64,000 nucleotides of DNA from Hyphomicrobiales bacterium (GTDB taxonomy: Bacteria; Pseudomonadota; Alphaproteobacteria; Rhizobiales; Xanthobacteraceae). The notes beneath the pieces were generated by a model that worked only from the letters and a program-made list of their open reading frames with translations, searched no databases and had not been told where the DNA came from. Numbering within the stretch: position 1 is the first letter of the stretch; the number at the start of each line of letters is the position of its first letter. Below, piece after piece: positions 14,332-56,482 of this stretch. The DNA lies in the NCBI GenBank assembly GCA_017305715.1, contig JAFKKG010000030.1, positions 3,728 through 67,727 on the forward strand, in the 5' to 3' direction. The translations under genes and the position numbers were made by a program.

Positions 14332-14421
14332 CCGGTTGAAATGGCCCACCGCTCTCTATAGACCGGCGGTGCCGGAAGGGAATCCGGGCGGGTTTCCTGC
14401 CCGCGTTCCCGATCCGCCTGT

Positions 14422-14496: not shown

Positions 14497-15001
14497 GGCA
14501 GCCGCTCAACCGGAGAGGGTGGGCATCTGCCACGTGAAAGCCAGATAATTTACAGGCATTTTTCGCGTTCGCGCCGAGTTTCCGGTTTTTCGAAAAATAA
14601 CAACTCTAACGTTGCGAACGGCTCGTGCTTTGGCCGAGCTGAGGTTGTTCCACAGCTCGTGCCGCCGTGCACATTTTCGCTACGGTTCGGCTGCGGCGCA
14701 ACGCAATGAAAAGACATCTCAACAAATTCTGCGATCCATGCGCGCCTGAATGATCTGCGGATGGTTCGTGCTGCGGTCCATCCTTGGGGTCCGGCATCGC
14801 TCATCGTTCCCATTCCGCTTTTCGAGGGGTGGCGTGGTGGGCTGGTCTGGTCGCCGTGGAGGCGGCTGGAGATCGCTGCCCAACAGCATCGGTTTGATAG
14901 ATGAAATTCTCAGCAGCTTCTGCAAAGGACCAAAAAAAGGGCAAAAAATTCCTGGCGCCCGGTGTCATCATTCGGCTCGTTCAACAACCACAGAGCCTGT
15001 C

Positions 15002-15748: not shown

Positions 15749-15765
15749 CTCCATTACATAGGTCC

Positions 15766-28825: not shown

Positions 28826-28838
28826 AACTTCTCTCTAT
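28824..28838. promoter_or_regulatory. Putative LysR binding site (T-N11-A core)
   Basis: ATA-N9-TAT overlapping the LysR start codon in the short divergent spacer. Confidence 0.4.
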
Positions 28839-28903
28839 TGGCCCAGACAGAAAATATACTAACACCTGGGCGCTTGTTGGCGCATAGAACTTTCCAATGT
28901 CTG

Positions 28904-30532: not shown

Positions 30533-31135
30533 CTACCGGACGATTTCCCGTTCGAGGCGGCTCATTGCTTCAGACATCCGCGAAAAGCGCACGACTTGTT
30601 GTCCTACCGTTTCGAGCTGGAAACGAGAAGACAAATCGGTGCACTGACCGGAATCATCGAACAGTTTCGCCGAGGTGTTGAGCGCCGCGCCCAGGGGGGT
30701 CGGCCAGCCCCGCAGCGAATGCGCAATGGATCGCAGGGCTGCGAGCGTCTGTCCGGTCGCCTGCCATCCGGCGGCGCAGGCGATCAGCCCGATTGCGACG
30801 CCGTCGAAATAGACGCGCTCGGACGAGCGCAGTTCCTCGGCGTAGTCGAGTGCGTTCTTCACGAGACCGGACAGCGAACCGTGGTAGGCCGGCGAGGCGA
30901 TCACGATGCCGTCGCAACGGCGATAGAGGTCGATCAGCCGTTCCGCCTCGGGCGTATTCGGCGTCTGACCCGGATTGTACATCGGGAGCATCAGGTCGGG
31001 GCCGCTGATCATCACGGTTTCGGCACCCTCCGCGGCGGCGGCCGCCAGACATACGGCCAAGGCGCGTTCCGTGGAGGACCCGCTGCGCGGTGTCCCGCCG
31101 ACCCCAAGGATAAGCGGTCGTTTGTTCTCACCCAT
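30533..31135 (-). CDS. NAD(P)H-dependent FMN reductase (SsuE/MsuE-like fold)
   Basis: ILGVGGTPRSGSSTE, DGIVIASPAYHGSLSGLVKNALDY. Confidence 0.88.
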   Translation of the reverse strand: MGENKRPLILGVGGTPRSGSSTERALAVCLAAAAAEGAETVMISGPDLMLPMYNPGQTPNTPEAERLIDLYRRCDGIVIASPAYHGSLSGLVKNALDYAEELRSSERVYFDGVAIGLIACAAGWQATGQTLAALRSIAHSLRGWPTPLGAALNTSAKLFDDSGQCTDLSSRFQLETVGQQVVRFSRMSEAMSRLEREIVR

Positions 31136-41473: not shown

Positions 41474-42856
41474 TCAGATGATGGTCGCCGACATGATCGG
41501 CCGGCTGTCGAGCATGCCCTTCAGTGTGATCAGGCCCCGATGCAGCAGGTTATCCCCGGCGCCTGGACTGAGTGACAGCCGTACCGCGCCAGGCGGGCGT
41601 ACGCCGTCGGTTGCGAAATTGTCGGCGGCGACCACGGCCACGCCCTTTCGGCGCGCGGCCGCCTCGAAATCCAGTGGCCGCCATTCCGGCGGCAGGCTCA
41701 ACCACATATGGACCGAAGCCGGATGAGAGCGAACCCGATCGGGTCCGAGAAAGTCGACCGCGAAGGCGACACGCTCGGCGATGATCTCGCGCATTCGCGC
41801 GATCACCCGGTCAAGTTCGGGATGGCTGAGGATGCTCGATACCATCTCGCCGACGAACGGCGTGGGGCCGAGCGTCATCGCGTGGAGCGTGTTTGACAGG
41901 GCCTCGTTGAGCGCGGGCGGGCAGACGATAAACCCGGTCCGGAAAGCCGGGCTCAGCCCCTTGGCGAGGCCGGTCGAATAGACGGTTCTCTCGGGCGCGA
42001 GCGCAGCGAGCGGTGCCGGGCGCTCCGCCAAAATTGCGGCCTGGGCGTCGTCCTCGAACAGCGTGAGCCTGAGCTCTTCGGCGACATCCGCGATCGCCTG
42101 CCGGCGTTCGAGGCTCATCGTGGCGATCGTCGGATTGTGCAGGGTTGTTTGAAGCGCGACGACGCTGGCGCCGGTTCGCGCGACGGCTTCGCGCAACGCC
42201 TCCGGACGCATGCCCTCCCGGTCCATGCCGACGCCGACGAGGCGCAGTCCCTGCAGTCCCGCAAGCGCCTTCAGGCCCGGATAGGTCAGTTCATCCGTCA
42301 GGATTGTGTCGCCGGGCCCGGCGAGTGTCGCCAGCGTGACATGGATCGCCTGCTGTACGCCGGCGCAGATCAAGACGTCTTCCGCACGCACCGAGAGCCC
42401 CAGCCGGCCAAGCCATTCGGCTGCGACGGCGCGATGGGCCGGGAGCCCGGCCGCGGGCGGATATTTCTGGAGCGGCAGAAGGGCTGCGCGCTGGGCCAAG
42501 GTCGTCAACGACGCCGAGACGAGATCGCCAAGGCCTGCGATTGGCGCGCGGTAGCAGGAAAAATCGACCGTACGCTCGAGTGCGGCAGGCCGGAATTCCA
42601 GTCGCTGTCCGACATTCCGTCCCGCTTTCACGAAGGTGCCACGACCGACCTCGCCTGTGACGAGATTCTTCTCGCTGGCCAGCGCATAGGCGCGCGTCAC
42701 CGTTCCGACCGTGACACCCAGACTTTCGGCCAGATCCCGTTGGGGCGGCAGCTGAGTGCCAGGAGGCAATTCGCCATTGTCGATCGCTTGCGCGATCGCA
42801 GTCGCGATCACGATGTAGCGGGGGCCTTCGAGATCGCGGATATCAGGTGTCCACAT
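41474..42856 (-). CDS. MocR/GabR family regulator (GntR wHTH plus PLP aminotransferase-like domain)
   Basis: GPRYIVIA, LPPQRDLAESLGVTVGTVTRAY, GEVGRGTFV, TLHNPT, FEDD, GLAKGLSPAFRTG. Confidence 0.92.
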   Translation of the reverse strand: MWTPDIRDLEGPRYIVIATAIAQAIDNGELPPGTQLPPQRDLAESLGVTVGTVTRAYALASEKNLVTGEVGRGTFVKAGRNVGQRLEFRPAALERTVDFSCYRAPIAGLGDLVSASLTTLAQRAALLPLQKYPPAAGLPAHRAVAAEWLGRLGLSVRAEDVLICAGVQQAIHVTLATLAGPGDTILTDELTYPGLKALAGLQGLRLVGVGMDREGMRPEALREAVARTGASVVALQTTLHNPTIATMSLERRQAIADVAEELRLTLFEDDAQAAILAERPAPLAALAPERTVYSTGLAKGLSPAFRTGFIVCPPALNEALSNTLHAMTLGPTPFVGEMVSSILSHPELDRVIARMREIIAERVAFAVDFLGPDRVRSHPASVHMWLSLPPEWRPLDFEAAARRKGVAVVAADNFATDGVRPPGAVRLSLSPGAGDNLLHRGLITLKGMLDSRPIMSATII

Positions 42857-42937
42857 GGGTATGTCCGTCGCCGTGCCTCTGAGAGAAAAATCTGGCGCAT
42901 AGGGAATGCATCTTAGCATATAATGACATTGACGTCG

Positions 42938-42968
42938 ATTGTATCCATGTCCTAATCTTGGATGTATC
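42938..42968. promoter_or_regulatory. Putative MocR operator (site B) between divergent mocR and CoA ligase genes
   Basis: ATTGTATC at 42938 and a second TGTATC 23 bp downstream. Confidence 0.5.
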
Positions 42969-43013
42969 GATCCAGCCTCGGGGGGCTGGGAGGGACAGTA
43001 CGACGGATTGTGG

Positions 43014-44660
43014 ATGGCGGCACCAGGAAATCCCTTTGTCGGCGCAACCTACGGCTCGGCCTTGAGGTGGCTCGCGGATCAATTCGGCCCGCGCGAGGCG
43101 TTGGTCTTCGGAGGCGAGAGATACACGTTTGCCGAGGTGAAACGTCGGGTCGACGAGGCCTCCCGCCGCTTCGAGGCGCTCGGTTTGCGGCCCGGCGATC
43201 GCGTGGCGTTGTGGCTGCCCAATCGGCCGGAATTCCTCTGGTGCTGGCTGGGTGCATCGCAAATCGGCTTGATCACCGTCGTGCTTAATACGCGCCTCAA
43301 GCTGCCGGAGGTCCGCTATCAGCTCGCGCAATCCGATAGTAATGCGCTGATCATTCCGGGTCGCGGTTCATTTCGCGATTTCCCCGCCGAAATTGCCGAA
43401 TTGTGCCCGGAGGTGCGGGTACAGTCGGCGCAAGCTCTGGCGACGGCCGAATTACCCGGACTTCGGCGTATCGTGACGCTCGATACCGGGCTCGGCTGGC
43501 CGGGACTGGTCGAATGGTCGCCATTCGGCCGCGCGACAGAGGCGGCGGCGCCCCCTGCCTATGCGGAAAATCCCAACGAGCCCGCCCTGATTTCCTATAG
43601 CTCCGGGACCACGGCGCTTCCGAAGGGGGCGTTGATTACACATTGCGTGTGGCGCAAGGCTTTCGACATCGGCGAGCGCGCTGATCTCACCTCCGAAGAT
43701 CGCCTTTATCTCTGCATCCCGCTGTTCGGTTCGATGGCGATGATGAATGGTGTCCTGCCGTTTTGGGCCCGCGGTGCGTCGGTCGTTCTCGCGGAACGGT
43801 TCGAGGTGCGCGAATTCCTGCGGGGCGTTTCGCAAGAGCGCTGCACAGCGACGCATTTCCTGCCGCCGATGGTCGAATCGCTCGTCGCCTCGTCCGAGCG
43901 CGCCGATTTCGACCTGTCGCGCCTGCGACTTGGCTGGGTGCTCAGCAGTGAGCGCCGAATTTTGGAATTGGTCGCGCACGATCTTGCCGTTCCCGGCATG
44001 ATGACCGGATACGGCCTCACGGAAACGACGACCGTTCTGACGCGCAACCGGTGGGATGATCCACTCGAGACGCGGATCACGACGCAGGGCTATGCGCTGC
44101 CGGACGTCGAACTGCGTGTCGTCGATCCCGAATCGGGCCGCGATGTCGCGACGGGCGACACAGGGGAGATCTGGGCCCGCGGCTATTGCATCACGCCCGG
44201 CTATTTCAGGAAGCCTGAAGAGAGCAGCAAGGCGCTAACGCCGGACGGATGGTTCAAGACGGGCGATGGCGGCTCGCTGGATGAGACGGGGCGGCTGACG
44301 TTTCGCGGGCGCCTTGGCGACGGTTACAAAAGCCGCGGTTTCAACGTCTCGCCGGCCGAGATCGAAGCCGTGCTCCTCGAGCACGCCGACGTCGAGGCGG
44401 CTGCCGTGGTCGGCGTCGCGCATCCGCGTTGGGGGCAGGTGGGCATCGCCTTCGTGGTCCCAGTCGAAGGCCGCGCTGCGGATCCGGCGGAACTCGCCAA
44501 ATATCTCAAGCCGCGCCTGTCGTCGTTCAAGCTTCCGGAACTGATCACGTGCGTGTCCGAACTCCCGCTGACGGCCGGGACCGGAAAAATCCAGAAATTC
44601 GTTTTGCGGGCGGAGGGAGAGCGTCTGCTCGCCGGCCGGCTGGCCGTCTCGCCGGGATGA
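43014..44660 (+). CDS. Acyl-CoA synthetase (AMP-forming)
   Basis: YSSGTTALPKG, GYGLTET, GEIWARG, WFKTGDGG, GFNVSPAEIE, KIQK. Confidence 0.9.
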   Translation: MAAPGNPFVGATYGSALRWLADQFGPREALVFGGERYTFAEVKRRVDEASRRFEALGLRPGDRVALWLPNRPEFLWCWLGASQIGLITVVLNTRLKLPEVRYQLAQSDSNALIIPGRGSFRDFPAEIAELCPEVRVQSAQALATAELPGLRRIVTLDTGLGWPGLVEWSPFGRATEAAAPPAYAENPNEPALISYSSGTTALPKGALITHCVWRKAFDIGERADLTSEDRLYLCIPLFGSMAMMNGVLPFWARGASVVLAERFEVREFLRGVSQERCTATHFLPPMVESLVASSERADFDLSRLRLGWVLSSERRILELVAHDLAVPGMMTGYGLTETTTVLTRNRWDDPLETRITTQGYALPDVELRVVDPESGRDVATGDTGEIWARGYCITPGYFRKPEESSKALTPDGWFKTGDGGSLDETGRLTFRGRLGDGYKSRGFNVSPAEIEAVLLEHADVEAAAVVGVAHPRWGQVGIAFVVPVEGRAADPAELAKYLKPRLSSFKLPELITCVSELPLTAGTGKIQKFVLRAEGERLLAGRLAVSPG

Positions 44661-44741
44661 GCGAGAAGGCCGAGTTCAACCGAATCGACCGCAGTGTCGG
44701 GAAAAAGCAAACCGGGGCGTAACGCTCGCAAGGAGGGAAGA

Positions 44742-46283
44742 ATGTTCAGTCGCCGCGATTTCGGAGCTGCGATCGGTGCGGCCGCAGTTCTTGGAACGAT
44801 TGGCAGGGCCAATGCGCAATCCAGCCCCAAGCCTGCCGTCGACAAGGACACCCTTGTTATCGCGCTGGAGAAGGAGATTCAGAGTCTCGACGCCCTGGTG
44901 ACAGCCAGCGGCGATTCGCAGCGCTATGCGCTCCAACTGTTCGATTCGCTCTACGGATTCGATCTCAAGGGCCGGACGGTCCCCCGCATGGCGACGGAGG
45001 TGAAGGTCTCCGACGACGGGCTCAGCTATACCTACAAGCTTCGTCCCGGCATTCGCTTTCACAATGGCGATCCGCTGACCTCCGAGGACGTCAAGTTCAC
45101 GATGGAGCGGGTGATCGATCCCGCCGCCAAGAGCACGCGACGGCCGTTCTTCGCGCCGATCATCGCCGGCGTCGAGACGCCCGACCCGTTGACGGTCGTC
45201 TTCAAGCTCAAGCAGTCCGACGGCGCCTTCCTCAACAAGATCGCCGGCTTTCTGTTCATCGTCCCGAAGGCCTACACCAGCGGGTTGCCCAACACGGATG
45301 CCTTTGCCTCTGCGCCTATCGGCTCGGGTCCCTACAAGTTGAAGCGCCACAATATCGGTCAGACGCTCGAGCTGGAGCGGTTCGAGGATTTCTATGGCGA
45401 GAAGCCGGGCGTCAAAAACCTCATCATGAAGATGATCCCCGAGGGATCGACACGCGTGAATGCGCTGCTGACGGGGGAGGTCGATCTCGTCGTGCAGGCG
45501 CCGCTCAACGAAAAGGAACGGCTCAGCAAGACGCCGGGGCTGAAGACGCTGACCAACCCGGTCTCCGCCCCGATGCATGTCAGGCTCTATTCAGACGATG
45601 CCTCCTTGCCGGTCTCCAAGCGCGACGTGCGTCTCGCCCTGAACCACGCTCTTGATTCCAAAGCGATCATCCGCTCGGTTTATTACGGGGTCGGTCAGCC
45701 GATGGGAACGTTCATCTCGGCATTTTACCCTTACGGGTCAGATCCCGACACCAAGCCCTATGCGTACGATCCCAAGAAGGCCCGCGAGCTTCTCAAGAAG
45801 GCGGGCTATCCGGATGGTTTCCAGCTCAAGCTCTACAGCGCCAACGACCATCCCAAGGAATTGGCGGAAGCCATCGCCGCCTATTGGGGCCAGGTCGGCG
45901 TGAAGACCGAAATCCTGCGCATCGACTACGCCGCCTGGAGCCGGCTCAACAATACCCACAAGAGCGGCCCGGCGACGATCACGCAATTCACCAATGCCAT
46001 CTACGATCCGATCCACCCGGTGGCCGGCTCTTTCTCGAAGAACGGGACCTGGTCCAACTACTACAATCCGGAAGTCGAAGCGCTGATCGCGAAGCTTGAT
46101 TCCACGGTCGGTGCCGAGAAACGCGGCGCCGTCTTCCGCGAAATCGGGCGGCTGCTTCACGACGATGCGGCGGCGGTCTTCATCACCGAGCTGTTTCACC
46201 TGTTCAGCCACAAGAATGGGCTGCAATGGAGCATGCAGGAGGGGTCCGGATTCCTGAACCTCCGGCAAGTGTCCTGGTCGTGA
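44742..46283 (+). CDS. ABC substrate-binding protein, family 5, paralog 1 (Tat-like SRRDF signal)
   Basis: FHNGDPLTSEDVKF, IGSGPYK, RLNNTHKSGP; AGGAGG RBS. Confidence 0.9.
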   Translation: MFSRRDFGAAIGAAAVLGTIGRANAQSSPKPAVDKDTLVIALEKEIQSLDALVTASGDSQRYALQLFDSLYGFDLKGRTVPRMATEVKVSDDGLSYTYKLRPGIRFHNGDPLTSEDVKFTMERVIDPAAKSTRRPFFAPIIAGVETPDPLTVVFKLKQSDGAFLNKIAGFLFIVPKAYTSGLPNTDAFASAPIGSGPYKLKRHNIGQTLELERFEDFYGEKPGVKNLIMKMIPEGSTRVNALLTGEVDLVVQAPLNEKERLSKTPGLKTLTNPVSAPMHVRLYSDDASLPVSKRDVRLALNHALDSKAIIRSVYYGVGQPMGTFISAFYPYGSDPDTKPYAYDPKKARELLKKAGYPDGFQLKLYSANDHPKELAEAIAAYWGQVGVKTEILRIDYAAWSRLNNTHKSGPATITQFTNAIYDPIHPVAGSFSKNGTWSNYYNPEVEALIAKLDSTVGAEKRGAVFREIGRLLHDDAAAVFITELFHLFSHKNGLQWSMQEGSGFLNLRQVSWS

Positions 46284-46298
46284 TGCGTTTTGCGCCAA

Positions 46299-46344
46299 AT
46301 TGTCACTAGCATTGTATCGATAAGCTAGATACAATTGACACAAT
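46299..46344. promoter_or_regulatory. Putative MocR operator array (site C)
   Basis: Perfect ATTGTATC-N9-GATACAAT (46311-46335) flanked by ATTGTCAC (46299) and GACACAAT (46337). Confidence 0.65.
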
Positions 46345-46356
46345 CAGAGAGCCAAA

Positions 46357-47160
46357 ATGGCTCTCCAATCGGATGAGACAATGTCAGGGCGGAAACACGG
46401 GCGCGTCGCGCTCATCACCGGTGGCGCCGGTGGCATCGGTTTCGCGACAGCCGAGCGGCTGGCGCGCGACGGCGCCGCAATCGCGATTTGCGATCTCGAC
46501 GGCGCGGCGGCGCAGGAAGCCGCCGCCCGGATCAATGCGAGCCATGGCGTGCCGGCGCGGGGCTATCAGGCCAATGTCGGCGAGCCCGATGCGGTCGAAC
46601 AACTCGTCGCGGAGGTGGTGCGGGAGCTCGGATCGCTCGATATCCTCGTGAACAATGCGGGGGTCACCCGCGACAACCTCGTCCACAAGATGAGCCTGCA
46701 GAACTGGGACGACATCATGTTCGTCCATCTGCGCGGGGCGTTCCTGTGCAGCAGCGCCGCGCAGCGGGTTATGGTGGAGCGCGGCTGGGGGCGGATCGTG
46801 AATCTGTCCTCGACGTCCGCGCTCGGCAATCGCGGTCAGGTCAACTACTCGACGGCCAAGGCGGGCTTGCAGGGCTTCACGCGATCGCTCGCGCTCGAAC
46901 TCGGCCGCTTCGGCGTTACGGTGAACTGCGTCGCACCGGGCTTCATCGACACGGAAATGACACGCAAGACGGCGACGAGGCTCGGAAAAGATCCGGAGGC
47001 CTACAAGGCGGAGCGCGCGAAGGGCATCGCGGTCGGGCGTGTCGGGGTGCCGGCCGACGTCGCCGCCGTGATCGCTTTCCTGGCCGACGACGAGGCGTCC
47101 TACGTGTCCGGCCAGGTCATCTATGTCAGCGGCGGGCCGGAAACCCGTCGCGGCGGCTGA
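46357..47160 (+). CDS. SDR oxidoreductase, FabG-like 3-oxoacyl-CoA/ACP reductase
   Basis: ITGGAGGIG, LVNNAG, NYSTAK, VAPGFIDT; start may be 46381. Confidence 0.88.
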   Translation: MALQSDETMSGRKHGRVALITGGAGGIGFATAERLARDGAAIAICDLDGAAAQEAAARINASHGVPARGYQANVGEPDAVEQLVAEVVRELGSLDILVNNAGVTRDNLVHKMSLQNWDDIMFVHLRGAFLCSSAAQRVMVERGWGRIVNLSSTSALGNRGQVNYSTAKAGLQGFTRSLALELGRFGVTVNCVAPGFIDTEMTRKTATRLGKDPEAYKAERAKGIAVGRVGVPADVAAVIAFLADDEASYVSGQVIYVSGGPETRRGG

Positions 47161-47171
47161 GAGGGGACATC

Positions 47172-48713
47172 ATGACAACCGGCATCGCGCGGCATCTTCG
47201 GACGCTCTCTCTTGTGAGCGTGCTCCTCGCCCCTGTTCCGGCGGCCGCAATCGGCGGCAAGCCGGCCGTCGACCGGGACACGGTCGTCATGGCGGTCAGC
47301 AAGGAGATATTCAATCTCGATGGGCAGGTCACCGCCAGCGGCGATTCCCAACGCTACGGCTGGCAACTCTACGACACGCTCTACGCGCTCGACCGCAACG
47401 GCGACATCGTGCCGAGGCTGGCGGCGGGCATGACCCGGTCCGAGGACGGTCTCACCTATACGTTCACGCTGCGGACCGACGTGAAGTTTCACAATGGCGA
47501 GTTGATGACGGCCGAGGATGTGGCCTACTCGATGGATCGGATTCTCGATCCAGCCGTGAAAAGCACCCGCCGTCCCGCCTTCGCGCCCGTCGTCGCCAAA
47601 TCGGAAGCCAAGGACGCGAAGACGGTCGTCTTCACGCTCAAGGAGCCGGACGGGGCGTTCCTCAACAAGATCGCCGGCTATCTCTTCATCGTGCCCAAGG
47701 CCTATACGCAATCGCTCGGAAGCCCCGAGGCGTTTGCGCGCGCGCCCATCGGCACCGGCCCGTATCGTTTCGTCGAGCAGAAGATCGGCCAGTTCGTCAC
47801 ATTCGAACGCTTCGATGACTACTTTGGTCCGAAACCCGGCATCAAGCGCCTGATCATGCGCCTGATCGAGGAACCCTCGAGCCGGGTGAATGCGCTCCTG
47901 ACAGGCGAAGTCGATCTGAGCGACGGCATTCCGACCGCCGAGATCGAGCGGCTCAAGAAGACGCCCGGCCTCACGGTCCATTCCGTCCCGATCGGGAGCC
48001 CGCTCGGGGTTCGCCTCTACGCCAACGATCCGTCGCTGCCGATCTCGAAGGCGAAGGTGCGGCTTGCCTTCAACTACGCCATCGACGCCAACGCCTTGAT
48101 CAAGAACGTGCTGCACGGCGCCGGGGCGCCGCTCACGAGCTATATCTCGTCCTACTATTCCTATGGCGTGAACCGCGACCTCAAGCCCTACGGCTACAAT
48201 CCCGGCAAGGCGAAACAACTGCTGAAAGAGGCCGGCTATCCCAACGGCTTCGAGATCTCGATCTATTCGTCGAGTGATTGGCCGAAGGAGATCGCCGAGA
48301 CATTGGCCGCCTATTGGTCCCAGGTCGGCGTCAAGGCGAAGATTCAAAGGATCGACTACGCGGCCTGGAGCCGGCTCAACAACACCCACAAGAGCGGGCC
48401 GATGACCTTGATGCAGATGTCGAACGCCATCTTCGACCCGATCCATCCGGTGACGGGTGGGGCGAGCAAGGCCGGCACCTGGTCCGACTACTCGAATCCC
48501 GAGATCGAAGAGCTCATCCTCGAGGCGAACAAGACCGCCGACCGGTCCGAACGCGATCGGGTCTTCAAGCGGATCGGCGCGATCCTGCACGAGGATGCGC
48601 AGGCCGTGCTGATCACCGAGATATTCTATGTCTACGGCGCCGACAGCGCGTTGGATTGGGCGCCCCAGCCGGGCATCGCCTGGTACGACCTGCGCACGAT
48701 CCGCTGGAAGTGA
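47172..48713 (+). CDS. ABC substrate-binding protein, family 5, paralog 2
   Basis: FHNGELMTAEDV, IGTGPYRF, RLNNTHKSGP; GAGGGG RBS. Confidence 0.9.
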   Translation: MTTGIARHLRTLSLVSVLLAPVPAAAIGGKPAVDRDTVVMAVSKEIFNLDGQVTASGDSQRYGWQLYDTLYALDRNGDIVPRLAAGMTRSEDGLTYTFTLRTDVKFHNGELMTAEDVAYSMDRILDPAVKSTRRPAFAPVVAKSEAKDAKTVVFTLKEPDGAFLNKIAGYLFIVPKAYTQSLGSPEAFARAPIGTGPYRFVEQKIGQFVTFERFDDYFGPKPGIKRLIMRLIEEPSSRVNALLTGEVDLSDGIPTAEIERLKKTPGLTVHSVPIGSPLGVRLYANDPSLPISKAKVRLAFNYAIDANALIKNVLHGAGAPLTSYISSYYSYGVNRDLKPYGYNPGKAKQLLKEAGYPNGFEISIYSSSDWPKEIAETLAAYWSQVGVKAKIQRIDYAAWSRLNNTHKSGPMTLMQMSNAIFDPIHPVTGGASKAGTWSDYSNPEIEELILEANKTADRSERDRVFKRIGAILHEDAQAVLITEIFYVYGADSALDWAPQPGIAWYDLRTIRWK

Positions 48714-48738
48714 TGGGTATCGAAGGCGAGATGCGGCC

Positions 48739-49656
48739 ATGCTCCGCTACCTGACACTCCGGATCGCGCAGTCGATCGTGACGGTGCTGCTGGTCACGAT
48801 GATCATCTTCGTGATCATCCGCCTGATCGGCGATCCGACCCATCTGATGCTGCCTCCCGAGGCGACGGAGGCGGATCGTGAGTTGCTGCGCCAGCAGATG
48901 GGCCTCTCCGATCCGGTCGCGGTCCAGTACTGGCGCTATCTGCTGCAATTGCTCCACGGCGATATGGGGATGTCCTATCGCTTCAGCCTGCCGGCGCTCG
49001 ATGTCGTGCTGGGGCGGATCGGTCCGACGCTTCTGCTCACGTGCACCTCGCTCGCGATCGGAATCCTGGTCGGCGTGCCGCTGGGTGTCGCCTCGGCCGT
49101 TCGCCCCGACGGCTGGATCGATTTTGTCGCCAAGGCGATCGCCCTGTTCGGACAGGCGGCGCCGCCCTTCTTCTTCGGGCTGATCTTCGTGCTTGTCTTC
49201 GCCGTTCAGCTCCGCTGGCTGCCGACGAGCGGCTATGGCGGTCCGCAATATCTCATTATGCCGGCGATCGCGCTCGGATGGTATTCCGCCGCCGGTCTGA
49301 TGCGGCTGACGCGTTCCAACATGATGGAGGTGCTCACCTCCGAATACGTCAGGATGGCCCGCATCAAGGGCGTGCCCGAGCGGGTCGTCGTATACAAGCA
49401 CGCGCTCAAGAACGCGGCGCTCCCGGTTCTCACCTTCGCCTCGCTCCAGTTCGGCATCCTGATGGGCGGCGCGGTATCGATCGAGTCCGTTTTCGCCTGG
49501 CCGGGAATGGGCAAGCTCATCCTCGATTCGATCGCCAATCTCGATTACGCGGTCGTTCAGGCGGCGGTGACCGTTTCCGCCCTGATGTTCACCGCGATCA
49601 ATCTCGCGGTGGATCTCCTCTACGCCTATATCGACCCGCGTATCCGCTATGCGTGA
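48739..49656 (+). CDS. ABC permease, DppB-like
   Basis: IGDPT, RLTRSNMMEVL..EYVRMARIKG, ESVFAWPGMG. Confidence 0.9.
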   Translation: MLRYLTLRIAQSIVTVLLVTMIIFVIIRLIGDPTHLMLPPEATEADRELLRQQMGLSDPVAVQYWRYLLQLLHGDMGMSYRFSLPALDVVLGRIGPTLLLTCTSLAIGILVGVPLGVASAVRPDGWIDFVAKAIALFGQAAPPFFFGLIFVLVFAVQLRWLPTSGYGGPQYLIMPAIALGWYSAAGLMRLTRSNMMEVLTSEYVRMARIKGVPERVVVYKHALKNAALPVLTFASLQFGILMGGAVSIESVFAWPGMGKLILDSIANLDYAVVQAAVTVSALMFTAINLAVDLLYAYIDPRIRYA

Positions 49657-50560
49657 CGCCCCCTCGCCAGACCGACCGGTCCTGCAGCGGACGGGCGCGA
49701 AGGATCGCACGCTTGCGGCGAGCGCGTCGGAGCGCTCCTCGCGCTGGCTCGCATCGCTGCAGATCTGGGTCGCAATCATCCTCCTTGCCATCGTCTTCGG
49801 CTCAGCATTGCTGGCCGCCTTCGTGACGCCTTACGATCCGAACGAGATCGGCCTCGACAAGGCCCTTCAGGCTCCCTCCGTGCAGCATTGGTTCGGGACC
49901 GATCAACTCGGACGCGATGTCCTGTCGCGGGTGATCTGGGGCGGACAGGTCTCGCTGTTCCTTGCCGCCTGCGCGGTCGCGCTCGCGGGAGCTTTCGGCA
50001 CGCTTCTCGGCCTCGTCGCGGGCTATTTCGGCGGTGCCGTCGACAGGGCGGTGATGTGGATCGCCGACGTGCAGTTTTCGCTGCCGGCCGTCATTCTTGC
50101 GCTCGTCCTGGTCGGCGCCGTCGGCCCGAGTTTCACCAACATCGTCGTTGTCCTCAGCCTCGCCAACTGGGCGCGTTTCGCGCGCGTCATCCGCTCCGAA
50201 GCGCTCTCGCTCAAGAGCCGCGATTTCGTGTTGTTGGCCAAGCTCGGAGGGGCATCGCCGCTCAGGATCATCGCCTATCACATCCTGCCGAACGTGCTCG
50301 GCACCTTCATCGTCCTTGCGACGCTGGATGTCGGCCTGATCATTATCCTGGAAGCCACGCTGTCCTTCCTCGGGCTCGGCGTGCAGCCGCCCGATCCCTC
50401 CTGGGGCACCATGATCGCAGACGGTCGCGGCTATCTCGAAAGAGCCTGGTGGATTTCCGTGTTCCCCGGTCTTGCACTCATGGCGACCGTGCTGTCCGGC
50501 AATCTGCTGGGCGATGCGCTGCGCGACAGGCTCAATCCCAGCCAAAGGCGGAGATGGTAG
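49649..50560 (+). CDS. ABC permease, DppC-like
   Basis: HWFGTDQLGRDVLSR, EATLSFLGLG, WGTMIADGR. Confidence 0.9.
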   Translation: MRDAPSPDRPVLQRTGAKDRTLAASASERSSRWLASLQIWVAIILLAIVFGSALLAAFVTPYDPNEIGLDKALQAPSVQHWFGTDQLGRDVLSRVIWGGQVSLFLAACAVALAGAFGTLLGLVAGYFGGAVDRAVMWIADVQFSLPAVILALVLVGAVGPSFTNIVVVLSLANWARFARVIRSEALSLKSRDFVLLAKLGGASPLRIIAYHILPNVLGTFIVLATLDVGLIIILEATLSFLGLGVQPPDPSWGTMIADGRGYLERAWWISVFPGLALMATVLSGNLLGDALRDRLNPSQRRRW

Positions 50561-50562
50561 GA

Positions 50563-51543
50563 ATGAGCGATCTCCTCCGCGTCGAGAATCTGACCACCTG
50601 GCTCGCCACCGAGTCCGGCATCATCACGGCTGTCGACGATGTGAGTTTCTCCGTTCGGCCCGGCCGCGCATTGGCGCTTGTCGGCGAATCCGGCTCCGGC
50701 AAGAGCATGACCTGCTCTTCCATCATGCGTCTTTTGCCCGCCAGTGGGCATATCGCCGGCGGCCGCGTGCTGTTCGAGGGGGAGGATCTCCTGGCCAAGA
50801 GCCCGGCCGAGATGGAGGCCATTCGCGGCCGCAAGATCGGCATGATCGTGCAGGATCCGATGACCTCGCTCAACCCGCTCTTTGACGTCGAGGATCAGGT
50901 CGGAGAGGTCTTCAGATATCACCTTGGCGATCGCTCGCGTCGCGCCCGACGGCCGAAGGTCCTGGACGTGCTGTCGCGTGTGCAGATTCCGGCCGCGGAG
51001 AAGCGCCTCGGATCCTATCCGCACGAATTTTCGGGCGGCATGCGCCAGCGCGTCGCGATTGCGCTCAACATCGCCTGCGCGCCGAAACTCCTGATCGCGG
51101 ACGAGCCGACGACTGCGCTCGACGTGACGGTGCAGCAGCAGATTTTGGCCCTGCTTCGCGATCTCCAGCGCGAGACCGGGATGGCGATCATTCTCGTGAC
51201 GCACGACCTGCACACGGTGCAACGCTTCTGCGACGAGGTCGCGATCATGTATGCCGGCCGGATCGTCGAGCAGGGGCCGGTGGCCGAGATCTTCGCGCGG
51301 CCGGCCCATCCTTATACGGAGGGACTTCTGCGAGCGCTGCCTCAGCTCGGGGGGCAGGAAGATCGCCTGCCGTTGATCCCCGGCCAGCCTCCGTCGCTGG
51401 CGTCGCTTCCTGCCGGGTGCAGGTTCGCGCCTCGCTGCCGGCGCGCGACCGATTTGTGCCGGACGGAATACCCCGACTGGATGGCAACGGCCGGCGAGAC
51501 ACGCCGCTCGGCCTGCTGGTACGCCGATGAGGTGCTCGGATGA
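50563..51543 (+). CDS. ABC ATP-binding protein, DppD-like
   Basis: GESGSGKS, FSGGMRQR, HPYT, GCRFAPRC. Confidence 0.92.
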   Translation: MSDLLRVENLTTWLATESGIITAVDDVSFSVRPGRALALVGESGSGKSMTCSSIMRLLPASGHIAGGRVLFEGEDLLAKSPAEMEAIRGRKIGMIVQDPMTSLNPLFDVEDQVGEVFRYHLGDRSRRARRPKVLDVLSRVQIPAAEKRLGSYPHEFSGGMRQRVAIALNIACAPKLLIADEPTTALDVTVQQQILALLRDLQRETGMAIILVTHDLHTVQRFCDEVAIMYAGRIVEQGPVAEIFARPAHPYTEGLLRALPQLGGQEDRLPLIPGQPPSLASLPAGCRFAPRCRRATDLCRTEYPDWMATAGETRRSACWYADEVLG

Positions 51544-52517
51544 GCGCTTTTCTCTCGGTACGGGACTTACGAAAGACGTTTCCGGTCTCCCGCGGCCTGT
51601 TCGGGAAGCCGGAGCTCTTGCACGCTGTCGCCGGGGTTTCGTTCGACGTGCCCGCCGGAACGACCTTCGGTCTCGTCGGCGAATCCGGTTCCGGCAAGAC
51701 CACGATCGCGAAAATGGTCATGGCAGCCGACGAGCCGACGTCGGGCGGGATCGTCATCGACGGCAGCGACATCGCCACGCACGGCAAGGCCGAACGTTTC
51801 GCCTTCCGGCGTCTCCTGCAGCCGGTGCTCCAGGATCCCTACAGCGCGCTCAGTCCGCGCATGCGAGTCGATCGCATCATCGACGAGCCGCTGCGGATTC
51901 ATCGCACCTATTCGAGCAAGGCGGCGCGCGCCGAACGGGTCGCCTACCTGCTCGACGCGGTCGGGCTGCCAGCGAGTGCGGCGCAGCGCTATCCGAACGA
52001 GATGTCGGGTGGGCAGCGCCAGCGCGTGGCGATCGCTCGGGCTCTCGCGCTTGAACCACGCCTTCTTGTTCTGGACGAACCGGTTTCGGCGCTCGACGTG
52101 TCGATTCAGGCCCAGATCCTGAACCTGCTTCGCGACCTGCAGGACCGGCTCGGTCTGACCTTCCTGCTGATTTCGCACGATCTCGCCGTCATCGGCTTCA
52201 TGAGCACGCAGGTTGGCGTGCTCTATCTGGGAAGATTCGTCGAAGTCGGCTCGAAAGAGACGATCCTTTCCGACGCGCGGCATCCCTACACCCTGGCTCT
52301 GATTGCCTCCGCCGTGCCCGAAGCCGACGCCGCCCCGGTTACCGGGGAGATACCCTCGCCTTTGTCCCCGCCATCGGGCTGCGTGTTTCACACCCGCTGT
52401 CCCGTTGCCACCGATCGCTGCCGCCAGGAGGTGCCATCCCTGCGCCAGTTGAAGCCCAACCACCTCGTTGCCTGCCATTTCGCGGAAACAACCCGCAAGG
52501 AGACCCGTAATGCTTGA
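51540..52517 (+). CDS. ABC ATP-binding protein, DppF-like
   Basis: GESGSGKT, MSGGQRQR, HPYT, GCVFHTRC. Confidence 0.92.
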   Translation: MSAFLSVRDLRKTFPVSRGLFGKPELLHAVAGVSFDVPAGTTFGLVGESGSGKTTIAKMVMAADEPTSGGIVIDGSDIATHGKAERFAFRRLLQPVLQDPYSALSPRMRVDRIIDEPLRIHRTYSSKAARAERVAYLLDAVGLPASAAQRYPNEMSGGQRQRVAIARALALEPRLLVLDEPVSALDVSIQAQILNLLRDLQDRLGLTFLLISHDLAVIGFMSTQVGVLYLGRFVEVGSKETILSDARHPYTLALIASAVPEADAAPVTGEIPSPLSPPSGCVFHTRCPVATDRCRQEVPSLRQLKPNHLVACHFAETTRKETRNA

Positions 52518-53703
52518 AAGGAATCGACTCATGGAACGCCCGATTGATCCGGAAGCAGCCCTGCATACCGCGGACATGAAGGCGCTGCGCGAACTCGCGA
52601 TCACCAAGTTTCGCGAACGCGGGCGCGGCTACGATGCCAATTGCGACATGCCGGTCGAGAACATCGAGGAGCTTCACCGGGGCGGATGGCTGCGCACCAC
52701 GCTGTCGAAGGAGCGCGGAGGTCGCGGCAGCAATCTCGATACCGACGATCCGGCGACATATCTGCAGGCTCAGCGTAGCATTGCGCAGGGTTGTCCCGGC
52801 ACCGCACATTGTTATCAGGTGACCAACCACACCGCCTGGTGTCTGGAAGCCATCGGCACAAAGAGCCAGAAGGAGCGCTACCTTGACCCGATGCGGGAGC
52901 GCTCGTTCCTGGGTTCGTTCGTTGGCAGCGAAGCCAAGCGCAAGCACATGTACATGATGAATACGACCGCCAAGAAGGTCGATGGCGGATGGGTCATCAA
53001 CGGCGAGAAGAACTACGCCACCAATGCGCCGACGATGGCCTTCGCGATCATCTTCGTCGCCCTCGAAGGAACCGAGGACTACAACCAAAATCACCAGATG
53101 ATCATCATCGAGCCCGGTATGAAGGGCGTCTCGATGGATCACACCTGGTATCGGCCGAACGGGATGCGGGCGACGCCATCCTCGATCATCACGCTCGACA
53201 ACGTATTTGTGACGGAAGACCAACTCCTCGGCGAGCCGGGCGCCTATCCGCGTCAGCGCTGGCAGGGGAAATTCCATCTCGGTTTCGCGGCGACCTATCT
53301 GGGCGCGACCGAGGGCATGTACGAATGGTACCTCGATTACGTTCGCAAGCGCGGCCGTGGCCGGGACGGCATCGTCCAGATGCGAACCGGCGAAATGAAG
53401 ATTCAGCTCGAAGCGGCGCGGGCGATTTTTCATCACGCCATCACGTGCTGGAAGACGAAACCGGTCGTTGAGGCGGAGCTTGCGTCCATGGCGGCCAAAT
53501 CGACGATTGCGCATGTCGCCTTCGAGCTCTCCCACAAGATCATCCACGCCGCCGGATCGACCGCGCTGTTCGACGAGTTCCCGCTCAGCCGCTATCTGCG
53601 CGATTTGGAAACCCACGTGCTGCACGCGGGACACGACCGGACGTCGCAAATCATAGGGCTGTCGGAGCTGGGAGAAAGCTTCGATTCGACCCTGCAGCGC
53701 TGA
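52510..53703 (+). CDS. Acyl-CoA dehydrogenase-fold protein, probably a DszC/SfnB-like flavin-dependent monooxygenase
   Basis: NGEKNYATNA, W...GMRATPS, GSTAL, LSRYLRD..THVLH; lacks the QF(G)...FQ and GGxG CoA/FAD motifs of true dehydrogenases; start may be 52531. Confidence 0.7.
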   Translation: MLERNRLMERPIDPEAALHTADMKALRELAITKFRERGRGYDANCDMPVENIEELHRGGWLRTTLSKERGGRGSNLDTDDPATYLQAQRSIAQGCPGTAHCYQVTNHTAWCLEAIGTKSQKERYLDPMRERSFLGSFVGSEAKRKHMYMMNTTAKKVDGGWVINGEKNYATNAPTMAFAIIFVALEGTEDYNQNHQMIIIEPGMKGVSMDHTWYRPNGMRATPSSIITLDNVFVTEDQLLGEPGAYPRQRWQGKFHLGFAATYLGATEGMYEWYLDYVRKRGRGRDGIVQMRTGEMKIQLEAARAIFHHAITCWKTKPVVEAELASMAAKSTIAHVAFELSHKIIHAAGSTALFDEFPLSRYLRDLETHVLHAGHDRTSQIIGLSELGESFDSTLQR

Positions 53704-53712
53704 CCACGTCGA

Positions 53713-53738
53713 GCGGAGGCGGATCACGCCGCCTCCGC
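53713..53738. other. Intercistronic GC-rich hairpin
   Basis: Perfect 10-bp stem GCGGAGGCGG-N6-CCGCCTCCGC with no U-tract. Confidence 0.55.
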
Positions 53739-53822
53739 AACATCCGCTGCAACTGAAAGGCTCGGCACCGCGACGATCGTCGCGGATTCGCCGGGTGGTC
53801 CATCGGGGAGGTTTGCCGGAAG

Positions 53823-54881
53823 ATGCGAAAACTCGAACTGGGCTGGTTCATTCCCACGCAAGGCGATACGACGGCTTACGGCGATCCGGGTGCATCCGTG
53901 CCGCCATCGATCGATGCTTTCGACCGCGTGTCGCTCAGTGCGGAGCGCGCTGGTTTCGAGTACCTGCTGATTCCGGTCAACGTCCATTGCTGGGAAGCCT
54001 GGATCACAGGCGCGATGATGGCGGCCCGAACCAAATCGATCAAGCCGCTCATCGCGGCCCGGCCCGGCTACATCAATCCCGTGCTGCTGGCAAAGATGAT
54101 CTCGACATTCGATCAACTCACCGGCGGACGGATCTGCATCAATCTGATCGCCGGTCTGAGCGACGAGCAATATGCCGCCGACGGGCTGCCCTACAGCAAA
54201 AACGACCGCTATCTGCTGATGGATGAGGAAGTCAGCATCCTCAAGGCCCTATGGAAGGCCGACGGGCCAATCGACTACAACGGTCAATTCTACAAGCTCA
54301 AGGGCGTTCAGGTCATCCCGCCGGTCCTTCAGAAGCCGTATCCGAAATTCTATCTGGGAGGCGGCTCGAAGGAAGCTTGGGAGATCTCGGCCAAGCATGC
54401 GGACGTCCATCTCTTCTGGGGCGACCACCCGGATCGGGTGGCCGAGAATATGAGCCAGATTCGACAACGCGCGGCAACGTACGGGCGGGCCGCCGAGATC
54501 GGCTTCGGCATGCGCCTGCAGATCATCTGCCGCGAGCGCGAGGAGGACGCCTGGGCGGCCGCCGACCAACTCATTCGTCACGCGGATGCGGAATTCCGCA
54601 AGGATGTCGCCGGCCGTTTCCAGAATTCGGTGGCGAACAGCCGGATGCAGGAACTCTCCAGCCAGGACCTTATCATCCCCCATCTGTGGACCGGCATCAC
54701 CAAAGTGCGTCCCGGTGCAGGCATCGCAGTCGTCGGCGATCCCCGGCAGTGCGCCGACACGCTGCAGAAGTTCATCGACATCGGCTGCCATTCATTCTGC
54801 CTGTCGGGCTATCTCCACGACGAGGAGGCGGAGCGCTTTGGCCGCATGGTGCTGCCGCTGCTGAGGGCGAAGAACGCATAG
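53823..54881 (+). CDS. Luciferase-like monooxygenase, SsuD (alkanesulfonate monooxygenase)-like
   Basis: WFIPTQGD, LIP...CWEAW, RPG, YLGGGS, LWTGITKVRPGAGIAVVG, LSGY.HDEEA all parallel SsuD motifs. Confidence 0.82.
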   Translation: MRKLELGWFIPTQGDTTAYGDPGASVPPSIDAFDRVSLSAERAGFEYLLIPVNVHCWEAWITGAMMAARTKSIKPLIAARPGYINPVLLAKMISTFDQLTGGRICINLIAGLSDEQYAADGLPYSKNDRYLLMDEEVSILKALWKADGPIDYNGQFYKLKGVQVIPPVLQKPYPKFYLGGGSKEAWEISAKHADVHLFWGDHPDRVAENMSQIRQRAATYGRAAEIGFGMRLQIICREREEDAWAAADQLIRHADAEFRKDVAGRFQNSVANSRMQELSSQDLIIPHLWTGITKVRPGAGIAVVGDPRQCADTLQKFIDIGCHSFCLSGYLHDEEAERFGRMVLPLLRAKNA

Positions 54882-54931
54882 TCATTTTGTCGGCGAGAAT
54901 TCAAGCCAACCGCAGTATGTGAGGAACGACG

Positions 54932-56482
54932 ATGTGGGTGAATAAACATGGACCGCGCGTCGCGATCGCTGCGCTCGCTCTCGTCTGTGCCATGCTCGGC
55001 GCTACGCCGTCGATCGCGATTGGCGGGAAGCCGGCAGCCGACAAGGGCACCATCATCATCGCTATCGGCCGAGATATCGCGATGCTCGACGCACAGGTCG
55101 ACAATACCGGGAATTCCGACCGCTATGCCTGGCAGATGTTCGATAATCTCTACACGTTCGACAAGCAGGGCAAGCTGATCCCTCAGGTCGCCAGGGATGT
55201 GAAGGTTTCCGACGACGGTCTCGACTATCGATTTTCCATCCGGCAGGACGTCATCTTTCACAACGGCGCCAAATTGACGGCCGAAGACGTGAAGTTCTCC
55301 TTCGACCGAATCCTGGACCCGGCAACCAAGAGCACGCGGCGGCCTTATTTTTCCGACATCATCGACCGGGTCGAGGTCATTGATCCCGCGACCGTCAACG
55401 TCAAGCTCAGGCAGCGCGACGTGGTCTTCATGAACAAGGTGGCGGCTTTCGTCGCCCTGGTGCCGAAGGCGTATGTGGAGTCGCTGCCGTCCGCCGAGGC
55501 TTTCGCCAGGGCGCCGGTCGGCGCTGGGCCCTACAAGCTTGTCTCGCACAAGATTGGACAATCTCTCGAACTCGAGCGTCACGACGCCTATTACGGCGCC
55601 AAGCCGGCGATCAAGCGTTTGGTTTTTCGGTACATCCCCGACGCATCAAGCCGCCTCAACGCGATGCGTGCCGGCGAGGTCGATATGGCCGACATGATCG
55701 CACCGAGCGACGTGAAGCAGATCAAAGAATCGGCCGGGGTATCGGTTGTGCTCGTACCGGCCGGGAGTCCGCTGCACATTCGTCTCTATTCGAGCGTGCC
55801 GAACACGCCGCTGGCCGACAAACGCGTGCGCCTTGCGTTGAACTACGCGATTGACGTCGATGCCATCATCAAGCATGTGCAACATGGCATCGGCAAGCCT
55901 CTGACGTCCTTCATCTCGGCCTACTATCCGGTGGGCGTCGATCCCGATCTGAAGCCCTATCCATTCGATCCGAAGCTGGCGCGTAAGCTTCTCGCCGACG
56001 CGGGCTATCCACGCGGCTTCGAGACCGAACTGCTGAGCCCGAATTCCTATCCGAAGGATGTCACCGACGCGGTCGCCGGCTACTGGCAGGCCATCGGCGT
56101 GCGGGCAAAGACCAAAGTGCTGGACTATCCAGCGTGGAATCGGCTCAACAACACGCACGCGTCCGGGCCGATGACCGTTATGCAATATTCGAACGCGATC
56201 TATGATCCGATCACCGCGATCTTCGGTACCGCAGCCAAGAAGGGCACCTGGTCGGACTATAGCAATCCCGAAGTCGATGCGCTGATCGAACAGACCAACT
56301 CGGTCGAGGATCCGGCCGAGCGCGACAAGCTGTTCCGCAAGATCGCACGCATCATGCGCGATGACGGGCATGCCGTTCTGATTTCGGAGCTGTTCTCCGT
56401 TTTTGCGATGGACAGCCAGATCGAATGGGTGCCTCAACAGGGTTACGCGTTCTACGACCTGCGCACCATCCATTGGAAATGA
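54932..56482 (+). CDS. ABC substrate-binding protein, family 5, paralog 3
   Basis: FHNGAKLTAEDVKF, VGAGPYK, RLNNTHASGP. Confidence 0.9.
   Translation: MWVNKHGPRVAIAALALVCAMLGATPSIAIGGKPAADKGTIIIAIGRDIAMLDAQVDNTGNSDRYAWQMFDNLYTFDKQGKLIPQVARDVKVSDDGLDYRFSIRQDVIFHNGAKLTAEDVKFSFDRILDPATKSTRRPYFSDIIDRVEVIDPATVNVKLRQRDVVFMNKVAAFVALVPKAYVESLPSAEAFARAPVGAGPYKLVSHKIGQSLELERHDAYYGAKPAIKRLVFRYIPDASSRLNAMRAGEVDMADMIAPSDVKQIKESAGVSVVLVPAGSPLHIRLYSSVPNTPLADKRVRLALNYAIDVDAIIKHVQHGIGKPLTSFISAYYPVGVDPDLKPYPFDPKLARKLLADAGYPRGFETELLSPNSYPKDVTDAVAGYWQAIGVRAKTKVLDYPAWNRLNNTHASGPMTVMQYSNAIYDPITAIFGTAAKKGTWSDYSNPEVDALIEQTNSVEDPAERDKLFRKIARIMRDDGHAVLISELFSVFAMDSQIEWVPQQGYAFYDLRTIHWK

Follow-up and report, generated by a model that had tools for sequence, protein, structure and literature searches.

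Two adjacent monooxygenase genes lie in a 64,000-nucleotide stretch of DNA from a Hyphomicrobiales bacterium of the Xanthobacteraceae (assembly GCA_017305715.1, contig JAFKKG010000030.1, positions 3,728 to 67,727; the whole stretch is called the window here). Gene 1 (52510..53703, + strand, likely start at 52531) is predicted to encode the oxygenase component, with an acyl-CoA dehydrogenase (ACAD) fold, of a two-component flavin monooxygenase; gene 2 (53823..54881, + strand; 352 residues) is predicted to encode a tail-less SsuD/MsuD-type sulfonate monooxygenase dependent on reduced flavin mononucleotide (FMNH2). We find that gene 1 is among the core genes of a ~26-kb, MocR-linked acyl-CoA catabolic cluster that is widespread in Alpha- and Betaproteobacteria, and that gene 2 almost never accompanies it. 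On balance we lean towards a reading in which gene 1 is a fixed oxygenase of this pathway, and gene 2 and the solute-binding protein (SBP) gene that follows it, SBP_C, are a lineage-specific addition to the operon rather than one half of a conserved pair of enzymes.

Gene 1 belongs to the core of a conserved acyl-CoA catabolic cluster

A scan for gene 1 homologs with one genome per species returned 80 loci (49-95% identity) in Alpha- and Betaproteobacteria, onto which we mapped the proteins of the window before clustering the remaining open reading frames (ORFs). An AMP-forming acyl-CoA ligase lies near the gene 1 homolog in 63 of the 80 loci, a short-chain dehydrogenase/reductase (SDR) in 52, MaoC in 46, the ACAD gene that we call ACAD1 in 37 and the rhodanese in 32; thiolase (27), carboxyltransferase (26), biotin carboxylase (25) and MocR (25) recur as well. 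Betaproteobacteria carry these genes as a single string (SDR, SBP, ligase, permeases, ATPases, gene 1, ACAD1, thiolase, MaoC_N, MaoC, reductase), and over the span that the FMN reductase and gene 1 delimit, the clusters of Enterovirga sp. and Xanthobacter sp. DSM 24535 are collinear with the window, again with ~22 kb between the two. A preliminary description of this DNA had proposed that the two distant operons and the reductase form one system, and these arrangements bear that out.

The same comparison separates gene 2 from the cluster. Its ortholog follows gene 1 in one of the 79 other loci, that of Bradyrhizobium lablabi, the closest genome to the window (90% nucleotide identity over 14 kb). 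Neither collinear operon extends past gene 1, after which Enterovirga has convergent genes, and no gene 2 homolog was found at E<=1e-60 in the whole genomes of Enterovirga sp. or Xanthobacter sp. DSM 24535.

Several features of the cluster vary between lineages. In Xanthobacter (L007-L009, L014, L016 and L020, at ~13200-16270 in locus coordinates) a tripartite ATP-independent periplasmic (TRAP) transporter (DctQ, DctM, DctP) replaces the Dpp-type ATP-binding cassette (ABC) importer, and other lineages have a major facilitator superfamily (MFS) gene in the cluster; because TRAP or MFS carriers stand in for the ABC importer, the substrate is probably a carboxylate imported by interchangeable transporters. 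In 17 of the 80 loci (for example L013:6322-8526, - strand) the cluster has the riboflavin-synthesis gene RibBA (DHBP synthase/GTP cyclohydrolase II) as a neighbour, which suggests a high flavin demand of the pathway. A subgroup of gene 1 homologs at 55-56% identity (L048, L049, L052, L056, L059, L062, L063 and others) sits in a different type of cluster, with MmgE/PrpD-family genes, TauD/TfdA-family dioxygenase genes and several family-5 SBPs as neighbours. The gene 1 loci also include those of an Aquamicrobium sp. (L005) and Xanthobacter tagetidis (L014 and L016). The genus Aquamicrobium and X. tagetidis are known to grow on thiophene-2-carboxylate via its CoA ester and subsequent hydroxylation, which we take as a lead to the substrate class and not as evidence; a literature search returned nothing relevant on the cluster or on thiophene-2-carboxylate genes.

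Gene 1 is a predicted group D flavin monooxygenase

Read from its first ATG at 52510, gene 1 encodes 397 residues, and from the second in-frame ATG at 52531 it encodes 390; a GAAAGGA ribosome site lies 8 nt upstream of the second ATG, and most homologs are 387-390 residues long. The protein matches the Pfam families Acyl-CoA_dh_N, _M and _2, with a better score for _2 (56 bits) than for _1 (36 bits). Its top NCBIfam match is SfnB (TIGR04022; 92 bits, cut-off 431), and it scores 68 bits against DszC (NF043015), whose cut-off is 850, so that the curated cut-offs place it in neither family. The DszC/SfnB-like and SsuD-like labels initially given to the two genes are thus right about superfamily and about the flavin-dependent, two-component type, but not about orthology, all scores lying below cut-offs; by these profile scores gene 1 is not an ortholog of SfnB or DszC and resembles them at the family level. 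Among solved structures it matches true ACADs at 83-111 bits, DszC at 67-97, MsuC at 63 and C2 at 58, and it scores 49 bits against the HsaA model. An AlphaFold model (pLDDT 89) has the ACAD/DszC fold, with template-modelling (TM) scores of ~0.83-0.85 to both classes in a Foldseek search against the PDB, and a protein atlas search returned generic ACAD names only.

The catalytic positions are more informative. Across 20 aligned members of the gene 1 family (55-87% identity), no Glu occurs at the position of medium-chain acyl-CoA dehydrogenase E376 (YEGT) or at that of isovaleryl-CoA dehydrogenase (IVD) E254 (helix G); gene 1 reads LHAGHD and QGKFHLG at these sites and so lacks the glutamate expected of an acyl-CoA dehydrogenase. 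The family's invariant polar residues include H93, H100, H139, H249, H362, H365, H368 and D369. Its invariant C-terminal motif, RDLETHVLHAGHD, aligns with RDAHAGRVHAAND of HsaA and RDAHMTGAHAYTD of C2, the oxygenase of p-hydroxyphenylacetate hydroxylase (HPAH), which puts His365 of the invariant HAGHD motif on C2-HPAH His396, with RVHAAND as the HsaA counterpart. The end-points of the DszC alignment put the same residue on DszC His391, which has been implicated in flavin hydroperoxide formation (PMC11134501). Gene 1 thus combines an ACAD fold, the loss of the catalytic Glu and a conserved C-terminal His with a separate NAD(P)H:flavin reductase encoded in its cluster, as in group D monooxygenases, and these features support its assignment as a flavin-dependent monooxygenase of the two-component type.

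Gene 1 could instead be an ACAD-family protein that acts on acyl-CoA without being an oxygenase: a non-catalytic partner of ACAD1 in a ChsE1-ChsE2-type heterotetramer, a dehydrogenase with Asp369 as an unusual base, or a desulfinase-like enzyme. Its best whole-sequence PDB matches are true ACADs, an acyl-CoA ligase heads its operon, and in ~20 betaproteobacterial loci it adjoins ACAD1, with thiolase and a two-subunit MaoC hydratase coming next, a layout that recalls the igr-type operons of steroid side-chain degradation. Yet gene 1 has neither catalytic Glu and does have the His motif typical of oxygenases, its many invariant polar residues speak against a degenerate subunit, and in Alphaproteobacteria it and ACAD1 lie in separate operons. 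The HsaB/C1-type reductase conserved in the cluster, moreover, has no other candidate client. We consider a non-oxygenase role improbable.

Gene 1 is the probable conserved client of the distant flavin reductase

The reductase gene of the window (30533..31135, - strand) is the last gene of the leftward operon, its start overlapping the MaoC stop by 8 nt. The product matches FMN_red (PF03358) at 84 bits and resembles SsuE or ArsH weakly. It had been described as the only FMN reductase, 22 kb from the monooxygenase genes; this holds within the window but not for the genome, which encodes 18 flavin reductases (6 PF03358 and 12 PF01613) and has a canonical ssu locus. Orthologs occupy the same position in B. 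lablabi (93%), Enterovirga (85%) and Xanthobacter sp. DSM 24535 (77%). Since the gene is retained in Enterovirga and Xanthobacter, where gene 2 is absent, no conserved candidate client for its reduced flavin is left but gene 1; this gene, and not the SsuD-like enzyme, is thus the probable conserved partner. The 30533-31135 protein probably supplies reduced flavin to gene 1 and, in this genome, to gene 2 as well.

Relatives of the cluster point to the same partnership by way of another reductase family. PF01613 flavin reductases, found near gene 1 homologs in 26 of the 80 loci, are the commonest family in these loci that is absent from the window. In Betaproteobacteria the gene stands right after MaoC, the slot that the PF03358 reductase fills in the window; at L029 it directly follows gene 1, and at L011, L047, L051, L053 and L055 it follows a second ACAD-like paralog. 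Their best matches are the reductases C1-HPAH (198 bits) and HsaB (145 bits), which partner the ACAD-fold oxygenases C2-HPAH and HsaA.

The cluster end of Variovorax sp. KK3 (L073:13645-18714) comprises a cluster-type SBP, a luciferase-like monooxygenase (LLM) of SfnG pattern with 35% identity to gene 2, a PF03358 reductase that shares 66% identity with the one in the window, an ABM-domain protein and an aldehyde dehydrogenase, as if an LLM-plus-reductase module had been recruited there independently.

Gene 2 is a predicted tail-less sulfonate monooxygenase

Gene 2 matches the Bac_luciferase family (194 bits) and scores 289 bits against the SsuD equivalog TIGR03565, whose cut-off is 518; judged by this profile it is not an ortholog of SsuD and resembles it at the family level. 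Its PDB matches are MsuD (7jv3, 255 bits), SsuD (1m41, 240 bits) and structures of SmoC (165-167 bits). In MsuD the sulfonate-binding motif consists of W195, R225, R296 and A/S299, and alanine variants of W195, R225 and R296 give no measurable sulfite release (PMC8234197). This tetrad is kept in gene 2 (W199, R231, R296 and A299) and in 12 subfamily members, and C56, Y330 and H332 are the conserved equivalents of Cys54, Tyr331 and His333. Two second-shell positions differ: MsuD/SsuD His228 is Gln across the gene 2 subfamily (Q233 here), and His11 is Gln in gene 2. Mutation of these histidines in SsuD changes activity little or not at all (PMC8234197). The C-terminal tail of MsuD (355-381, with E368) inserts into the adjacent protomer's active site (PMC8234197); in gene 2 it is missing, with 4-10 residues past the equivalent of MsuD 348 versus 34 in the genome's own SsuD. 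The conserved residues point to a short, tail-less sulfonate monooxygenase of the SsuD/MsuD family.

Within the genome, gene 2 shares 33% identity with the true SsuD (contig C35) and 65% with a paralog on contig C18. Relatives of the 65% type occur in 123 of 301 Bradyrhizobium genomes sampled; this tally includes one unpublished genome (G166), on which no claim depends, and since each per-genome search scored 5-6 candidates, it may miss some weak copies. The window-type gene is much rarer, just two of 300 other Bradyrhizobium genomes having it, G201 (95%) and G225 (72%), and an order-wide sample of 401 genomes gave four with a gene 2 match, the window's own included, all of them Bradyrhizobium. 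The contexts of gene 2 relatives vary, and unrelated ones surround the C18 paralog and a gene in Reyranellaceae that neighbours MBOAT and condensation-domain genes. The Reyranellaceae gene (74%, the closest relative outside Bradyrhizobium) was considered as a clue to the substrate and gave none. The C18 locus (C18:66000-85999, L085) places the paralog near two M20 (ArgE/DapE-type) deacylases and a polysaccharide deacetylase, together with an SBP_bac_3 protein, a PF01613 flavin reductase and a Usp protein, and may be a route for N-acylated sulfonates.

Sulfur scavenging has a canonical locus elsewhere in this genome. C35:328000-347999 (L086) holds an LLM, an SsuA-like SBP and an ABC ATPase, then an ACAD-like gene (SfnB, 127 bits) directly before an SsuD/SfnG-like LLM (205 bits); the true SsuD (640 bits) comes next, and a PF01613 reductase lies at 346436. 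As had been remarked earlier, no ssuABC or ssuE adjoins gene 1 and gene 2: neither the SsuE/MsuE reductase nor the SsuABC-type transporter of ssuEADCB and msuEDC contexts is found beside gene 2, whose neighbours are a Dpp/Opp-type ABC importer and the ACAD-fold gene.

The preliminary description had the two enzymes act in sequence. In such a scheme gene 1 would S-oxygenate a thioether, sulfoxide or sulfinate and gene 2 would cleave a sulfone or sulfonate to sulfite, in the manner of DszC/DszA or MsuC/MsuD, both being fed by the distant reductase. The same two enzyme classes do occur in the msuEDC and sfn routes (PMC8234197), the C35 locus has an ACAD-like gene followed by an LLM, the rhodanese of the cluster and a YeiH gene hint at sulfur chemistry, and other lineages repeatedly have LLM or TauD-type genes close to the cluster. 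Against such a relay stand the near-absence of the gene pair from other loci and the collinear clusters of Enterovirga and Xanthobacter, which keep gene 1 and the reductase in genomes that lack a gene 2 homolog. Gene 1 also falls far below the SfnB and DszC cut-offs and reaches only 63 bits with MsuC, and its C-terminal motif is nearest to those of the ring hydroxylases HsaA and C2. We give the sequential scheme a low probability and do not retain it.

Gene 2 and SBP_C as a probable lineage-specific addition

SBP_C (54932..56482, + strand; SBP_bac_5, 281 bits) directly follows gene 2 and is the third family-5 SBP of the operon, 52% identical to SBP_B and 48% to SBP_A. It has no permease of its own and therefore depends on the upstream transporter. 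An ortholog of SBP_C was found only in G201, a B. lablabi-type genome, and synteny between the window and B. lablabi ends at 56494. Gene 2 would accordingly be placed, from this distribution, as a probable late addition specific to a B. lablabi-like Bradyrhizobium lineage. As for composition, the idea that gene 2 and SBP_C are a foreign insert was dropped, their GC and GC3 (GC content at third codon positions) being the same as those of gene 1. In B. lablabi a gene for a YeiH-family putative sulfate exporter directly follows SBP_C (L001:13984-15054); the only YeiH gene of the window (28838-29983; 72% nucleotide identity to the B. lablabi copy) adjoins a LysR gene past the reductase end of the leftward operon.

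The spacer between gene 1 and gene 2 measures 119 nt. A 10-bp GC-rich hairpin lies at 53713..53738 (+ strand), 10 nt after the gene 1 stop and with no T-run, and a perfect 18-bp palindrome, CCGCGACGATCGTCGCGG, lies at 53768..53785, 38 nt upstream of the gene 2 start. Folded as a 126-nt segment, the spacer reaches -57 kcal/mol (z -2.1) with two strong stems, the palindrome forming the second. The gene 1-proximal hairpin occurs nowhere else in the genome; it is conserved in B. lablabi, the palindrome partly so. The palindrome is possibly a second RNA hairpin or an operator for a regulator. The spacer contains no MocR box and no sigma-70-like promoter site before gene 2, the terminator scan called no canonical terminator in it, and it has no Rfam match. 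Two identities were considered for the hairpin after gene 1: a repetitive extragenic palindromic (REP)-type repeat was rejected because the hairpin is unique in the genome, and an intrinsic terminator was not called by the scan.

This spacer bears on whether gene 2 and SBP_C belong to the operon at all. They might be an independent sulfur-starvation scavenging unit that landed beside it, controlled by sulfur and drawing flavin from any of the 18 reductases. The lack of a MocR box, the two strong hairpins and the large number of reductases in the genome fit such a unit, as does the spread of the gene 2 subfamily through Bradyrhizobium in unrelated contexts (the M20 deacylases on C18; in Reyranellaceae, MBOAT and condensation-domain genes). 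However, SBP_C is paralogous to SBP_A and SBP_B of the cluster and relies on the upstream permease, the spacer offers neither a sigma-70-like promoter nor a canonical terminator, and the arrangement is kept in B. lablabi at 90% nucleotide identity. An independent unit seems to us unlikely, and we continue to favour an addition to the 3' end of the existing operon, with which gene 2 and SBP_C would be co-transcribed.

Organization of the window

The ORF list and profile matches describe one + strand gene series from the ligase through SBP_C (42939-56482). The AMP-forming acyl-CoA ligase (42939-44660, + strand) heads the operon and is followed by SBP_A, a family-5 binding protein (44694-46283, + strand), the SDR (46357-47160, + strand) and SBP_B, a second family-5 binding protein (~47220-48713, + strand). 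The part upstream of gene 1 (46357..52517, + strand), comprising the SDR, SBP_B, two permeases and two ATPases, is tightly packed up to gene 1. Gene 1 and gene 2 lie in tandem on the + strand, as the preliminary description had it, and are associated with a Dpp/Opp-type ABC importer made up of the three family-5 binding proteins, two permeases and two ATPases. That description also placed the two genes in a MocR-motif operon: MocR-type boxes are indeed present at 46311-46344, upstream of the SDR, but gene 2 has no box of its own.

The MocR regulator gene (41474-42919, - strand) is divergent from the ligase gene. To its left lie ACAD1 (38748-39914, + strand) and a four-domain rhodanese (39919-41466, + strand), and beyond these the leftward operon runs from 38391 to 30533 on the - strand, with carboxyltransferase, KstD-like flavoprotein, enoyl-CoA hydratase (ECH), biotin carboxylase, thiolase, MaoC_N, MaoC and the PF03358 FMN reductase. 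ACAD1 has YGGT in place of YEGT and retains the helix-G Glu (NAERLG), which identifies it, by this signature, as an isovaleryl-CoA-dehydrogenase-type ACAD, consistent with the neighbouring Liu/Atu-like carboxylase genes.

Discussion

We propose that gene 1 is the oxygenase half of a reduced-flavin-dependent two-component monooxygenase of group D, like HsaA, C2-HPAH and DszC, and that it would oxygenate an intermediate of an acyl-CoA pathway whose enzymes would be the acyl-CoA ligase, SDR, two-subunit MaoC hydratase, thiolase, IVD-type ACAD, four-domain rhodanese, biotin carboxylase set, ECH and KstD-like flavoprotein of the cluster. Reduced flavin would come from the cluster's own reductase, here the PF03358 protein at 30533-31135. 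In a B. lablabi-like lineage only, gene 2 and the paralogous SBP_C would then have been appended to the 3' end of the operon. A sulfonate would enter via SBP_C and the shared permease, and gene 2 would most likely cleave off sulfite, with FMNH2 from the same reductase, in an arrangement resembling SmoC/SmoA of the sulfoquinovose SMO operon. Gene content, conserved residues, synteny and distribution are observed here; the catalytic activities, the substrates, the sharing of the reductase and co-transcription are inferred from them.

Comparison with known systems places both enzymes near, but outside, established types. HsaA/HsaB, the steroid 3-HSA hydroxylase, and C2/C1, the p-hydroxyphenylacetate hydroxylase of Acinetobacter baumannii, are group D two-component flavin monooxygenases. 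Gene 1 shares with them an ACAD fold without the catalytic Glu and the motif RD-x5-(V/L)-H-A-x-x-D, and the PF01613 reductase in the clusters of its relatives is nearest to C1 and HsaB. It differs from them in context, an acyl-CoA pathway with an ABC, TRAP or MFS importer instead of an aromatic or steroid ring-cleavage operon, in the PF03358 rather than PF01613 family of the window's reductase, and in low whole-protein similarity (HsaA 49, C2 58 bits). With DszC, SfnB and MsuC it has the fold and the two-component logic in common (DszC structures, TM ~0.83), whereas its neighbours are of beta-oxidation type, with no ssu, sfn or msu context. Gene 2, for its part, has the TIM-barrel LLM fold and sulfonate tetrad of SsuD (Escherichia coli) and MsuD (Pseudomonas fluorescens) but not their ~30-residue C-terminal tail, and it is not encoded with ssuEABC or msuE. 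In the SMO operon of Agrobacterium tumefaciens, genes for an SsuD-like LLM and a flavin reductase stand together with those for an SDR and for an ABC importer that depends on a binding protein. This operon provides a precedent both for the presence of an SsuD-like enzyme within a carbon-catabolic ABC operon and for desulfonation outside sulfur-starvation regulons (PMC8795539). The transporter in the window is nevertheless of another family, sulfoquinovosidase and sugar-pathway genes are absent, and gene 2 matches the SmoC structures less well than that of MsuD.

Several observations weigh against the reading that we favour. On the side of gene 1, neither fold nor whole-sequence similarity separates an oxygenase from a dehydrogenase; the motif alignment with HsaA and C2 covers a 69-residue fragment at weak E-values (0.03-0.4); in Betaproteobacteria gene 1 directly precedes ACAD1, as with heteromeric steroid ACADs; and the second ACAD-like paralog (34-39% identity) could be the true client of the PF01613 reductase. 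On the side of gene 2, composition gives no sign of a separate origin (GC3 0.78 for gene 2, 0.77 for SBP_C and 0.78 for gene 1), and LLM genes of other subfamilies and TauD-family genes lie near the cluster in 6 and 13 of the 80 loci, respectively, so that a functional tie between the pathway and desulfonation is possible.

A bolder combination, which we hold to be rather doubtful, would make both genes founding members of new classes. Gene 1 would represent a new subfamily of ACAD-fold oxygenases acting on a CoA-bound intermediate of a widespread, possibly organosulfur, acid-degradation pathway with interchangeable PF01613 and PF03358 reductases, and the tail-less Gln233-type SsuD relatives, present in ~40% of sampled Bradyrhizobium, would at the same time form a distinct class of sulfonate monooxygenases with an open active site that would admit bulkier sulfonates, such as carboxylated or peptide-like ones brought in by Dpp-type binding proteins.

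Both genes are further members of known enzyme kinds, and the pathway that hosts them is uncharacterised. Their analysis corrects an attractive reading, in that adjacent ACAD-fold and SsuD-like genes are not here the marker of a sulfur-scavenging relay, and it gives the distant FMN reductase a probable client in gene 1. The two divergent operons emerge as one conserved unit, which makes a sharper target for a search for the pathway's substrate. Two uncharacterised subfamilies are also flagged: an HsaA/C2-like oxygenase in an acyl-CoA pathway and a tail-less relative of SsuD that is common in Bradyrhizobium, a genus in which a sulfonate monooxygenase is reportedly required for symbiotic nitrogen fixation (as Speck et al. 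are said to have described in 2019).

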